DNA from: Candidatus Nanohaloarchaea archaeon
GTDB taxonomy: Archaea; Nanohalarchaeota; Nanosalinia; Nanosalinales; Nanosalinaceae
Assembly (NCBI GenBank): GCA_041640035.1
Contig: JBEQBC010000002.1
Span: 96,001-160,000, forward strand
Length of the DNA stretch: 64,000 nucleotides
Reading direction: 5' to 3'
Both the position numbers and the translations under genes were made by a program. The notes under the pieces are model-generated. The model saw nothing but the letters and a program-made list of their open reading frames with translations. It made no database searches and had not been told where the DNA came from. Shown one piece after another: positions 55,702 to 61,687 of the stretch (positions are counted from its first letter, which is position 1; each line of letters opens with the position of its first letter).

Positions 55702-56249
55702 TATTGACCATCCTCCGCGTTGGTGATGTAGATTCCGTCTTGGAATGTTCGTGGGTCACGGTTTCCTTTTTGGGAGAGCTGTTCGATCCGTGCTGCTGTT
55801 TGGCTTGCTGCTTCTTTGTCTGGACTGGTTACTGTGATTTCATCGCCGTCAACCTGTACACTGGCGTTGTCCATGATGTCTGCTTCTCTTGGTTTTCTTT
55901 CTCCCATGAAGTTCTCTACCAGCACTTTGTCTCCTTCCTGTTTGATTGTCATCGGGAAGTGGGCGTAGACCGCCTTTAGTTCGTATGTGTGCGGATTCTC
56001 GAGGCCTTCGATCATGTTGTTTACATGGCTTCTGAAGGCGTTGACTATGCTCTTTACATCTTTCTTGTGTGAGTCTGTGCTGATTGTTACTTCGTCGCTA
56101 CCTACTTCTACTGTTACTAGTGCGTGTTCCAGTTCTTTCTGTGCTTCTGTACCGTTCTGGCTGACTGTGAGTACGCCGTCCTGGTATTCTGCTTCGACTT
56201 CTTCTGGTAGTTCTACTGTTTCTTTCATTGTTGGATCACTAGTAGACAT
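55701..56249 (-). CDS. rpl6: 50S ribosomal protein uL6
   Basis: YAHFP, NFMGE, DPRTFQDGIY; start may be 56228. Confidence 0.96.
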   Translation of the reverse strand: MSTSDPTMKETVELPEEVEAEYQDGVLTVSQNGTEAQKELEHALVTVEVGSDEVTISTDSHKKDVKSIVNAFRSHVNNMIEGLENPHTYELKAVYAHFPMTIKQEGDKVLVENFMGERKPREADIMDNASVQVDGDEITVTSPDKEAASQTAARIEQLSQKGNRDPRTFQDGIYITNAEDGQ

Positions 56250-56640
56250 ATCCGAGGAGTTTTCCGCCGTGATTGTCCTCGATTGCTTCTTCGTGGGTTT
56301 TGATGCCTTTCGGCGTGGTGACGATCAGGTGTCCGAAGTTTCGGGCTGGTAGGTATCTCTTTGCCCATTTGTCGAATTCGTCTACCTGTGTTGGGAAGTT
56401 TGGTTTGATCGGTCGGCACTGGTTCAGGTTGTTTGTTACTTCTACTCTGAATCGGTCTCCCTGTCCGTCCTCGATCAGTTCGAATACGCCGATGTAGTCC
56501 AGTCTCTGTAGCTGGATGAGTACCTGCTTGATTGTCTCTGTTGCAGGTTCAATCTCTGCGTATTCACGGTTTTGCTGTACTGCGTTATTGATTGCGGATA
56601 GTGCGTCGCTGAGTGGATCTTGCTTCATCTTTTTGGTCAC
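56239..56640 (-). CDS. rps8: 30S ribosomal protein uS8
   Basis: DPLSDAL, YLPARNFG, TTPKG, GGKLLGYVY; start may be ATG 56628. Confidence 0.96.
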   Translation of the reverse strand: MTKKMKQDPLSDALSAINNAVQQNREYAEIEPATETIKQVLIQLQRLDYIGVFELIEDGQGDRFRVEVTNNLNQCRPIKPNFPTQVDEFDKWAKRYLPARNFGHLIVTTPKGIKTHEEAIEDNHGGKLLGYVY

Positions 56641-59145: not shown

Positions 59146-59432
59146 TGTTCTTCAGCCTCTTCGTCGTCTACTTTTTCGATTATGATGTGGCTTTTTGTCT
59201 TGGAGATTGGTCGTGTTTCGCCGACTCTAACTGTTTCTCCTTCTTCTACCTCCATGTCCTCTGGTACATGGACGGTTATTTTTGTGTTTCTTCTTTCTTT
59301 TCTCTCGTATTTCGGTACATTTTCTGCGTATTCCCATCTGACGGTCGCTGATTTCTCCATTTTGTTGGATACTACTGTTCCTGTGAACTGTCCGCCGCTT
59401 ACTGGGTATTCTGTTTCGGTATTGGTTGTCAA
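59142..59432 (-). CDS. rps17: 30S ribosomal protein uS17, N-terminally shortened, probable TTG start
   Basis: GTVVSNKM, PKYERKERR, ETRPISKTK; AGGTGA about 10 nt before TTG at 59432. Confidence 0.9.
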   Translation of the reverse strand: MTTNTETEYPVSGGQFTGTVVSNKMEKSATVRWEYAENVPKYERKERRNTKITVHVPEDMEVEEGETVRVGETRPISKTKSHIIIEKVDDEEAEEQ

Positions 59433-59513
59433 AGCTGTTTTGTCACCTTTTGTGGTTGTCTTCTCGTTGTTTTGATGGAAGGGAGTAATCAAGTTCTTGG
59501 TTTATCTGGTTCT

Positions 59514-59687
59514 GCCTGACTACAGTGATTTCCAGTTAGAATCTGTCAAAGAGTAATATGCAGTACCTCACCTTAACTGAGGTGTTCGAGCAGGGATTTT
59601 GACAGACCTAACCGAAAGTATCGAACACTTAATGTGTCCGAGTTTCGTCAGGGAAAACCGGGTAAACTGTGTTTCCCTTCTCAGGTC
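59514..59687 (-). ncRNA. Candidate structured RNA or 5' leader, family unrecognised
   Basis: Closing stem CCUGA/UCAGG enclosing three hairpins, including a perfect 9-bp UCUGUCAAA/UUUGACAGA; TATA-like box ~25 nt upstream. Confidence 0.6.
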
Positions 59688-59710
59688 GTGAAGTTAAAGT
59701 GGAAAGTAAA

Positions 59711-59728
59711 CTTTAAAAGGGTGGTTTT
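59711..59728 (-). promoter_or_regulatory. Putative BRE/TATA promoter
   Basis: Minus-strand AAAACCACCCTTTTAAAG; similar AAAACC...TTTTAA elements precede the minus-strand genes starting at 39027, 51402 and 60341. Confidence 0.55.
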
Positions 59729-59730
59729 GG

Positions 59731-59976
59731 TTAGATCCTATCCTCAGGTCGTTCCAGTATATCCGTACCTTCGACCTCAACCATGTTATCCTGTACATGT
59801 ATTATGAATTTGCGGCCTTTCTTCGGAACCTTCTTCCCATCAATATTCAGAGTGTTCTGCGTTTCGTCAAGTATCTCACCTGAGATATCTTCCTGTGAGT
59901 CATCTGGTGAAGACTTTACCTCTGCCTGGAGGCCTATTAGTTCGTGACGAAAAATGTTTTCAGAGGTTCTTGGCAT
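59731..59976 (-). CDS. rnp1: Ribonuclease P protein subunit Rpp29/Pop4
   Basis: HELIGL, GEILDETQNT, VPKKG, RPEDR. Confidence 0.93.
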   Translation of the reverse strand: MPRTSENIFRHELIGLQAEVKSSPDDSQEDISGEILDETQNTLNIDGKKVPKKGRKFIIHVQDNMVEVEGTDILERPEDRI

Positions 59977-60035: not shown

Positions 60036-60341
60036 TCACTTGATCTCGATCTGTGATCGGTCGAAGCCTTGGTCTACAAGGACATCTTCTATCCTTCTTT
60101 TGTGGTTTCCTTGTAGCTCTATCTTGCCGTCTTTGGCTGTTCCGCCGCAGGCAAGCTTTGTTTTGAGCTTGGAGGATAGGTCGCCAAGGTCGACTGAATC
60201 GTCGATTCCCTCGATTACTGTGACTTCCTTGTTGTAGCTTCTTGTGTCGATTTTGACAGTTATTTTCTGTTCATCTTTTGCGATGTCGCCGCAGACACAA
60301 AGGTCCTGTGGCATTCCGCATTTTGGACAAGTCTCGGACAT
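60036..60341 (-). CDS. Translation initiation factor aIF1/SUI1
   Basis: [35 protein letters not shown]. Confidence 0.96.
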
Positions 60342-60385: not shown

Positions 60386-60583
60386 TTATTCTTCCTCGTT
60401 GAGGACTGTTTTGATCCGGGCGATGGTTCTCTTCATTTCCTTAATCCGTCCAGGGTTTTCGGAGAATCCTCCTACTTCGATCTGTCCTCGTTCTTCAACG
60501 AGTTCTTTCTTCAGATCTGTCATTTCCTGTTTGAGTTCGTCTTTGCTCATGTCCCGGATTTCTTCTGTTCTTAGGATTGCCAT
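60386..60583 (-). CDS. rpl29: 50S ribosomal protein uL29
   Basis: EIRDMS, NPGRIKE, IARIKTV. Confidence 0.96.
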   Translation of the reverse strand: MAILRTEEIRDMSKDELKQEMTDLKKELVEERGQIEVGGFSENPGRIKEMKRTIARIKTVLNEEE

Positions 60584-60595
60584 TTTTTATCGCCT

Positions 60596-61687
60596 CTATT
60601 TGCGGTTCCTCAACCATTCTAGAAGTGTTTTTCTGCTTTTTCCGCTTTCCTCAGCTTCGATCAGTTCGTCGACTGGCACTTCTTCAAGCTCTTCTTCTAG
60701 TTCTCTTACTTCTTCCTTTGCTTCCTTTACTGTGTTGGAAACGATTTCGTCGTGCTCGATTTCTTCAAGAGCTTCTTGAGCCTCTTCGATAGCTTCTTCA
60801 GCCTCTACTGCCTCCTCTTTGGCTTCTTCCAGTTCTTCTTCAGCTTCTTCGACTGCTTCCTCTACTTCTTCCTCAATGTCTTCGTCTTCTTCTGTTAGTT
60901 CGTCTGGCTGGTTCTCGAATGCGTCTCTAATCTCTGATTTTTCGACACTGGATGTATCTACATCTTCTTCGAGATCCTCCATAGCTCTTTCGAGCTCTGC
61001 TGAGGTCATGTTATCTGCTTCCTGGATGATCTTGTCGATGAGCTCTGGCTTCTCTGCTTCGTCAGCTGTTTCTCCTTCTGACTGGTGAAGGATTTCCTTG
61101 CTTACATCGACATCTCTGTGCTTGAATTCTGGCAGTTCCTTCATGATCCGGACTTTTACGCCGATTGCTCCCGGCTTGGTTCTTGCAAGCTGGTATGCCT
61201 TTTCGACATTGTCCTTGGATGTGTTTCCGCATCTCTTTACATATCCGAATGAGAATTTCTCTGTTCTTCCTCGGTTACCAGATAGCTTTCCTGCAATCTC
61301 TACTTCTGCTCCGATTACTCCTGCTTCCTTCATTCTTCGGATGTATGTGTATCCGACTCTTTTGGCGTGTCCTCCTTTTTCTAGCCAGGAGGCGATGCTT
61401 TTTGCTACGATTTCTGCGTCGGAGTCAGGGTTCTCGATTTCGTTGACCTCGATCTGAGGGTTCTCGAAATCGAATTCTTTCTCCATTTTCTCTGTAAGTT
61501 CCTGTATTCTTGATCCACCGCGTCCGATAACGAGTCCTGGACGCTGTGCGTGTACTACTATTTTTGTTGAAGTAGGTGTTCTTACAAGTTCACTTTTACT
61601 GTATCCTGCGCCTTCGAGTTCTTCTTCTAGGAACTCGTCCAGCCTTACTTTCCTTGCTCCTTGTTGAATGAATTGTTTTTCTTGCAT
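60596..61687 (-). CDS. rps3: 30S ribosomal protein uS3 with long acidic extension
   Basis: RPGLVIGRGG, GKLSGNRGR, GAIGVKVRI. Confidence 0.96.
   Translation of the reverse strand: MQEKQFIQQGARKVRLDEFLEEELEGAGYSKSELVRTPTSTKIVVHAQRPGLVIGRGGSRIQELTEKMEKEFDFENPQIEVNEIENPDSDAEIVAKSIASWLEKGGHAKRVGYTYIRRMKEAGVIGAEVEIAGKLSGNRGRTEKFSFGYVKRCGNTSKDNVEKAYQLARTKPGAIGVKVRIMKELPEFKHRDVDVSKEILHQSEGETADEAEKPELIDKIIQEADNMTSAELERAMEDLEEDVDTSSVEKSEIRDAFENQPDELTEEDEDIEEEVEEAVEEAEEELEEAKEEAVEAEEAIEEAQEALEEIEHDEIVSNTVKEAKEEVRELEEELEEVPVDELIEAEESGKSRKTLLEWLRNRK

Follow-up and report, generated by a model that had tools for sequence, protein, structure and literature searches.

Our analysis identified a conserved RNA element in the non-coding gap between rnp1 and the S17 gene of a nanohaloarchaeal ribosomal protein operon, which we interpret as a leader through which ribosomal protein S8 would regulate its own operon by means of a copy of its 16S rRNA binding site in helix 21 (the probability that we assign to this reading is roughly 0.6). 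The element is conserved among relatives, its core matches the rRNA core letter for letter, its helix covaries and the S8 gene is linked to it in the same operon. The preliminary description of the window, i.e. of the whole stretch of 64,000 nucleotides that was analysed, had suggested an autoregulatory ribosomal protein leader that possibly imitates rRNA. This remains the best-supported reading, with 16S helix 21 and not 5S rRNA being the part that is imitated.

Genomic setting of the leader

The ribosomal genes lie in a row on the minus strand, which is the coding strand of the operon, and all coordinates are given for that strand. The genome comprises 0.98 Mb on 24 contigs and is 89% complete. 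The genes and signals on which the argument is based are the following:

60386-60583, minus strand: L29 (Pfam)
60036-60341, minus strand: SUI1 (Pfam)
59731-59976, minus strand: Rpp29/rnp1 (Pfam)
3' of the gap, minus strand: S17 and L14 (Pfam; Ribosomal_S17 with E 2.1e-22)
59447-59443 and 59432-59430, minus strand: Shine-Dalgarno sequence GGUGA and TTG start of S17 (N-termini and Shine-Dalgarno positions of relatives)
56239-56640, minus strand: S8 gene, the proposed ligand (ORF packing and phmmer against archaeal S8 chains)

The TTG codon at 59432 is most likely the start of S17, because relatives start at the equivalent place and, in the relative of the same genus, a stop codon interrupts the longer frame upstream. 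With this start the non-coding gap that separates rnp1 from S17 spans 59433-59730 and measures 298 nt, in agreement with the gap of about 300 nt in a packed operon that had been noted before. The packing of the ORFs gives the order S17, L14, L24, S4e, L5, S14, S8 and L6, with the genes between L14 and L6 other than S8 named from their translations. S8 is a normal, full-length protein whose ORF matched archaeal S8 chains in phmmer (4v6u, E 5.2e-34; 1i6u, E 4.9e-32), and its gene is located 2.8 kb downstream of the gap on the same strand and in the same packed operon. The translations of two further genes of the window, read as L24 (58031-58729, minus strand, 232 aa) and S3 (60596-61687, minus strand, 363 aa), end in very long C-terminal tails rich in Asp and Glu.

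No frame of 20 or more codons lies within the leader, and a frame of 34 codons (59694-59798) that overlaps the end of rnp1 extends only to the promoter region. Frames were not kept in relatives, and a small conserved leader ORF was accordingly not found. A scan of the gap against Rfam 15 yielded nothing at the gathering thresholds and, with E values up to 10 admitted, two noise hits (E 6-8). RNase P RNA and SRP RNA were ruled out as identities of the element, with the candidate for the former and the genome's copy of the latter (132.9 bits) being located on other contigs, and so was 5S rRNA, for which two genes are found on the contigs C1 and C9. The RNA had been described as unrecognised at the outset, and neither the Rfam scan nor the comparison with these three RNAs claims anything in the gap. 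The only RNase P RNA candidate in the genome (L002, G000:C4:48829-49139; 41 bits, E 1.1e-10) stays under the 84-bit cut-off, and by this low score the RNase P RNA of the lineage is divergent. A 16S rRNA gene was not found in the 89%-complete assembly, and 16S rRNA of relatives was therefore used for comparison.

Occurrence of the element in the family

A DNA search in 60 relatives returned the promoter box, together with parts of the element in two genomes. Searched with the S17 protein, 42 of 50 genomes of the family proved to carry the gene, at 43 loci in total, and the upstream DNA was read for all 43 of them (ten loci from the DNA search and 33 that were fetched separately). This collection of spacers, which the preliminary description had proposed, showed the full module at 37 of the 43 loci, corresponding to 36 genomes of 17 genera, and also provided the covariation of the lower helix that is presented below. 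At the remaining loci, a contig end in G023 leaves only the 3' half of the module visible, the upstream DNA of G002 and G028 is too short to judge, and the module is missing from intact upstream DNA in G004, G014 and G016, which belong to three genera of the family.

A covariance model of the module hit 32 of the 70 genomes of the order, including 31 of the 49 other family members; the same 70 genomes make up the phylum level. The four other families of the phylum, represented by 20 genomes, gave no hit. Under the strict filters applied, the model missed four genomes of one genus with a variant core. Each hit lies immediately 5' of S17, and no genome has more than one except G068, whose two hits correspond to its two S17 loci. 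The spacing between rnp1 and S17 is only about 50 nt in five genomes of three other families and, together with the absence of hits from the 20 genomes outside the family, these short spacers make the element look like the invention of one family.

Some loci are noteworthy for other reasons. The two S17 loci of G068 (L131 and L156) have different leaders, one with a short hairpin P2 (see below) like its own genus and the other with a long P2 like another genus, pointing to a mixed bin or to duplication of the region. A search for S17 in contigs of public genomes kept 80 loci, of which 79 were bacterial or distant and one, L044, belonged to a close relative. Its record is titled as a marine gammaproteobacterial MAG while its S17 is 86% identical to the archaeal one, and the label is probably wrong or the bin mixed. 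In the genus of L017 (G020) and L031 (G032) an unrelated gene of 250-370 codons is inserted between SUI1 and rnp1, and the S17 leader is still kept.

A core resembling the S8 site of 16S rRNA

The module is a helix that is interrupted by AGUC on one strand and by GAUACU on the other. In the window it consists of the following parts, with core positions numbered as in 16S rRNA:

59643-59647, minus strand: helix-21-like lower stem, 5' strand CGAAA, pairs with 59613-59617 (constrained fold, pair counts in the anchored alignment, RNAalifold)
59613-59617, minus strand: lower stem, 3' strand UUUCG, with U644 at 59617; forms the base of P3 in the minimum-energy fold instead
59618-59642, minus strand: S8-core-like internal loop and hairpin P2 (invariant positions and letters of relatives' 16S)
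59621-59641, minus strand: P2, with 59641-34 paired to 59628-21 and the loop at 59633-29 (fold of the window)
59641-59639 and 59622-21, minus strand: core positions U598-C599-G600 and G639-A640
59642 and 59620-59618, minus strand: core positions 597 (C59642), U641 (59620), A642 (59619) and C643 (59618)

Every one of the 37 leaders has a 5' strand that reads [A/G][A/G]-G-U-C-G (A-C-U-C-G in two genera), then a variable hairpin and then C-G-A-U-A-C-U. The core of helix 21 in the 16S genes of the four relatives that cover it reads AAGUC...GAUACU, and the complete AGUC/GAUACU is present in 27 of the 37 leaders. Ten positions of the anchored alignment are invariant throughout, namely A596, U598, C599, G600, C638, G639, A640, A642, C643 and U644.

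The internal loop of 16S helix 21 has been described as the primary S8 site, with seven conserved nucleotides and the base triples (G597-C643)-U641 and A595-(A596-U644) (PMC4176348). The roles of the core positions as S8 determinants, A642 among them, are taken from the available text of that paper. A642, which in S8 sites is bulged next to position 641, is found in all 37 leaders (A59619 in the window), as is the pair A596-U644 (A59643-U59617). The U598-A640 pair is kept as well and lies between regular flanking helices, with U-A, C-G and G-C each occurring in 37 of 37. In comparison to 16S helix 21, the leaders thus share the core AAGUC / GAUACU with A596-U644, U598-A640 and A642, and they differ from it in the upper helix and at position 595. 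At the latter, the leaders carry A or G, which in most of them forms a Watson-Crick pair with an additional base (G-C 18, A-U 13, other or unpaired 6) instead of being left for the triple.

The G597-C643 pair that forms the triple with U641 is G-C in 31 of the 37 leaders and absent from the window, where C59642 stands opposite C59618 so that the pair cannot form. C at 597 occurs in six of the 37, in the genus of the window (the window included) and in one other genus, and the 16S rRNA of the window's genus has the normal G. U641 is present in 32 of 37, again including the window (59620), and is replaced in five. If S8 binds the C597 copy of the window at all, this binding would probably be weaker or different.

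Three leaders were compared with 16S and 23S rRNA of relatives, and past the core the likeness was confined to words of 8-10 nt, which is chance level for P3; a second rRNA mimic in P3 was rejected for this reason. In the genus of L013 (G008), and in no other, P2 carries a 9-nt word, UGAAAUCCA, that equals a part of upper helix 21 of relatives' 16S, which with an E value of 11 may be chance.

Covariation of the S8-like helix

The anchored alignment of the 37 sequences is ungapped on both flanks of the core, which makes the covariation test free of alignment choices. The tested structure consisted of a 9-bp lower stem, the pair 597-643 and 4 bp of P2, i.e. 14 pairs or 518 cells. Paired cells accounted for 84.9%, against 35.7-48.5% with the 3' partner slid by 1-3 columns, a control that keeps the relatedness of the sequences. 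Both sides change in eight of the 14 pairs, and the covariation score was 0.307 versus 0.177. Double changes were seen in 47 cells compared to a shuffled mean of 19.4, and none of 500 shuffles reached 47, although such shuffle-based figures overstate the significance somewhat since related sequences are not independent. The pair beside A596-U644 illustrates the exchange, with the G-C and A-U types given above.

RNAalifold, run unguided, recovered the same helix on the core alignment, on the 21 long-P2 leaders and on the 16 short-P2 leaders (plus 100 nt downstream). It also found the apical hairpin of P2 to covary in the long-P2 group, one pair being A-U in 11 leaders and C-G in seven, with three other types besides, and in the anchored alignment the P2 base pair 20-69 covaries.

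Fold of the leader and its competitor

The predicted folding energy of the segment 59493-59730 (minus strand) is -66.6 kcal/mol, as opposed to -48.5 on average for shuffled sequences (z -4.6), none of 200 shuffles being as stable, and the plus strand of the region reaches a z of only -1.9. The structure of the leader is strand-specific and real. Apart from P2, the fold contains the following elements:

59530-59617, minus strand: long hairpin P3, 59617-59598 paired with 59550-59530, apical hairpin at about 59585-59567 (minimum-energy folds of the window and relatives)
59515-59520, minus strand: 3' strand GUCAGG of the closing stem P1, pairs with 59647-59652 in the minimum-energy fold
59476-59484, minus strand: 3' strand of an outer helix, pairs with 59674-59683 near the 5' end of the transcript (minimum-energy fold only)

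Among the five stems predicted in the preliminary description, 59621-28/59634-41, 59542-50/59598-606 (with its extension) and the apical 59565-70/59578-83 recur in the minimum-energy fold, and the other two are replaced. Specifically, 59515-20 does not close the structure with 59681-85 but pairs with a second copy of CCUGAC at 59647-52, and the stem 59651-56/59672-77 is lost. P1 and the lower stem compete for 59647. The apical part of P3 contains a conserved A-rich GAAAAACC in the alignments of relatives, and the window reads CAAAAUCC at 59601-59594.

In none of 34 leaders, each folded singly between its putative transcription start and the initiation codon of S17, did the minimum-energy structure contain the S8-like lower stem; forcing the stem raised the energy by 0.6-14 kcal/mol (5.7 on average). 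In 24 of the 34 folds its 3' strand was instead paired downstream, as the base of P3, and in 22 its 5' strand was paired downstream. Several genera possess a downstream stretch that is complementary to the whole 5' strand and the core over 12-14 bp (z down to -5.3). A universal P1 closing stem or anti-S8-site strand was rejected, since strong complementarity (z <= -2.0) is found in only 14 of 37 leaders. The alternative pairing that had been pointed out originally, 8 bp between 59621-28 and 59582-89, does exist in the sequence but is restricted to one of the 34 leaders, that of the window, and loops with UUAAG are likewise not conserved and peculiar to the genome of the window. What holds across the family is the general competition for the 3' strand and not this specific helix. 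A helix that covaries and yet needs help to win is what would be expected of a fold that is stabilised by a protein or formed co-transcriptionally. The S8-like site is situated 82-189 nt upstream of the S17 start codon in the 34 leaders, and a simple sequestration of the Shine-Dalgarno sequence is unsupported, with a mean openness of 0.52 with the helix forced versus 0.54.

Promoter-like regions

Two features at the 5' end of the leader suggest that it has a promoter of its own:

59705-59722, minus strand: promoter-like box, BRE and TATA (conservation in relatives)
59686-59690, minus strand: candidate transcription start region CACGA (aligned with a conserved TTAC[G/A], about 27-30 nt past the start of the TATA box)

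A TATA-like box had been suspected at 59711-59718, and TTTTAAAG is indeed found there (59718-59711) within the box CCACCCTTTTAAAGTTTAC, which is conserved 5' of S17 across genera. Its core is invariant in all of the ten relatives that were collected first, and such a box is located 5' of the element in at least 34 of the 37 leaders. Box and element are kept even where the upstream gene is not rnp1. Transcription would start at 59686-59690, to judge by the alignment.

A second TATA-like box (GGTTTAAAAG...) was read by eye in about 18 of the 21 long-P2 leaders, immediately 3' of the element at a distance of 35-90 nt from the start of S17; a pattern search caught only ten of these boxes. It was found in none of the 16 short-P2 leaders, the window's own included. 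This box may be a second promoter that lets transcription of S17 bypass the element, and it keeps the reading as a separate small RNA alive in those genera. Partial second copies of the 5' strand of the element were observed in L151 (G010) and L154 (G025), about 70-120 nt past the element, and in L139 (G016), just before the S17 Shine-Dalgarno sequence. They follow the second TATA-like box, directly precede the Shine-Dalgarno sequence and are fused straight to GAUAC (or GAAAC) without a hairpin (…CAGUCGAUACC…), and they look like a collapsed duplicate of the promoter and the start of the leader.

Alternative explanations

One alternative is that the promoter drives an independent small RNA whose transcription stops ahead of S17. 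Such an RNA might nevertheless bind S8, for example as a buffer or an assembly helper, and would not act in cis on the operon. The strongly conserved promoter box fits with this, and so do the second box between element and S17 in about 18 of 21 long-P2 relatives, a possible promoter of the mRNA, and the predicted openness of the ribosome site, which remains unchanged when the S8-like fold is forced. However, all 16 short-P2 leaders lack the second box and have the element contiguous with the S17 Shine-Dalgarno sequence, no long U-tract follows the element in the window, and the position directly upstream of S17, on the same strand and once per genome, is that of a cis element. We consider a small RNA unlikely, the novel ncRNA beside rnp1 of the preliminary description included. 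Somewhat less likely still is a structured leader that works free of protein, in stability, processing or a response to salt or temperature, and resembles the S8 site by coincidence. Such a leader would be in line with an S8-like helix that is never the minimum-energy fold and with the one defining pair that is broken in the copy of the window. Against a coincidence stand the ten invariant positions, which carry the same letters as the S8 core in the rRNA of these organisms, the covariation of the very helix that presents these letters, and an operon that encodes S8.

Another ribosomal protein of the operon might be the ligand, either L5/L18 through a 5S-like string or a different one through GAAAAACC of P3. 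The preliminary description had pointed to a resemblance to 5S rRNA loop C, and by eye the tip of P3 in the window has CGAACAC and AGU.AAG in common with the genome's own 5S rRNA. This much of the resemblance stands, but MAFFT did not align the leader with 5S rRNA in this way, and the string is missing from a relative of the same genus and from all other genera; a loop C mimic for L5/L18 is not a conserved property of the family. The conservation of GAAAAACC across genera leaves some room for another protein. The matches of P3 to 16S and 23S rRNA of relatives are chance-level words of 8-10 nt in the three leaders compared, and it is the S8 core that accounts for the invariant letters; a ligand other than S8 therefore appears improbable to us. 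The common letters of the helix 21 core might finally be thought to derive from a decayed fragment of a 16S rRNA gene, a notion to which we attach next to no weight: matching words do not exceed 10 nt and there is no similarity past the core, the flanking stems have covarying sequences of their own, and the place before S17 is fixed across 17 genera.

Proposed mechanism

In the autoregulatory reading that we prefer, the operon S17-L14-L24-S4e-L5-S14-S8-L6... would be transcribed from its own promoter just past rnp1. Its leader would present, near the 5' end, a helical mimic of the S8 site in 16S helix 21, composed of the lower stem, an internal loop of A-(G)-U-C / G-A-U-A-C-U and P2. We infer that S8 occupies this mimic and locks the helix-21-like fold in place once more of it is made than free 16S rRNA can take up. 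Without S8 the competing fold would win. There, P3 takes up the 3' strand of the lower stem as its base, and the 5' strand frequently finds a partner farther downstream. Bound S8 would then lower the expression of the operon that encodes it, with translation, decay and early termination as candidate means.

In a more specific version the leader is a protein-sensing switch. The nascent transcript would adopt the helix-21-like fold first; S8 would capture it, and failing that the stabler fold of the same strands would take over. We put this forward as a tentative proposal that may well not hold.

Comparison with other ribosomal protein leaders

Feedback on ribosomal protein operons through rRNA mimicry is textbook knowledge for E. 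coli. S8 represses the spc operon of this organism through a mimic of helix 21 (PMC4176348, PMC3616713, PMC10931766), S8 feedback has been described for E. coli and Vibrio, and in the available text of the latter two papers (PMC10931766, PMC3616713) the Gammaproteobacteria are the only group with documented control of the spc operon by S8. The spc operator of E. coli and the element of the window both are RNA mimics of the helix 21 core within an operon that encodes S8, and the feedback use that we propose is that of E. coli. The operator of E. coli and other Gammaproteobacteria is bacterial, overlaps the start of rplE (the third gene, encoding L5) and, according to the parts of these sources at hand, acts by direct translational repression with coupling. 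In contrast, the element of the window is archaeal, is located in the leader of the first gene, S17, has an additional P3 and a competing fold, and shows no likeness past the core. An overlap with the start of rplE or a relatedness beyond the core, as expected of a homologue of the spc operator, was not found, and the element occurs upstream of S17 in a single archaeal family. Judged by these sequence features it is an independent invention and not a homologue of the spc operator.

Few examples of ribosomal protein feedback are on record for Archaea in the available texts, namely L1 (PMC3616713, PMC10931766) and the computational candidates for S15 and eL15 (PMC7247131). The L1 site of Methanococcus vannielii is similar in that an archaeal ribosomal protein represses its own operon via an mRNA copy of its rRNA site (PMC3616713, PMC10931766), and it differs in the protein, the rRNA (23S), the operon and the lineage. 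The candidates of Eckert and Weinberg 2020 (S15 in Halobacteria/Methanomicrobia; eL15) are conserved structured leaders of archaeal ribosomal proteins, some of them being rRNA mimics (PMC7247131). In the passages and table rows of that paper that match these terms, S17 and Nanohaloarchaeota are absent and S8 appears only in cited references. Outside the prokaryotes, the intron of yeast RPS22B (uS8) mediates self-repression via a conserved stem with two bulges that its authors likened to the S8 site (PMC13232506). It acts on splicing and, as stated in the accessible part of that report, could not be aligned to the S8 site by its authors, whereas the core letters of the family of the window match. 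The full-text literature that was searched, with subscription papers and supplements lying outside of it, contained no description of an S8-site leader before an archaeal S17 operon. The element is most likely an S8 feedback element, which would be new for Archaea.

Implications for archaeal ribosomal protein regulation

Nanohaloarchaeota are tiny symbionts, and to our knowledge almost no RNA biology has been described for this lineage with its genomes of about 1 Mb, to which the element adds a conserved non-coding RNA. A candidate S8 site before an archaeal spc-like operon represents a directly testable archaeal case, in which the same solution would have arisen independently at a different operon position. 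The natural variants of the core (C597; A, G or C at 641) could be used to probe what archaeal S8 needs. If the switch proves to be true, Nanohaloarchaeota would have evolved their own S8 feedback on a whole spc-like operon, self-control by uS8 would have been invented separately in bacteria, eukaryotes and archaea, and the genera with a second promoter may also use the RNA as a free S8-binding small RNA.
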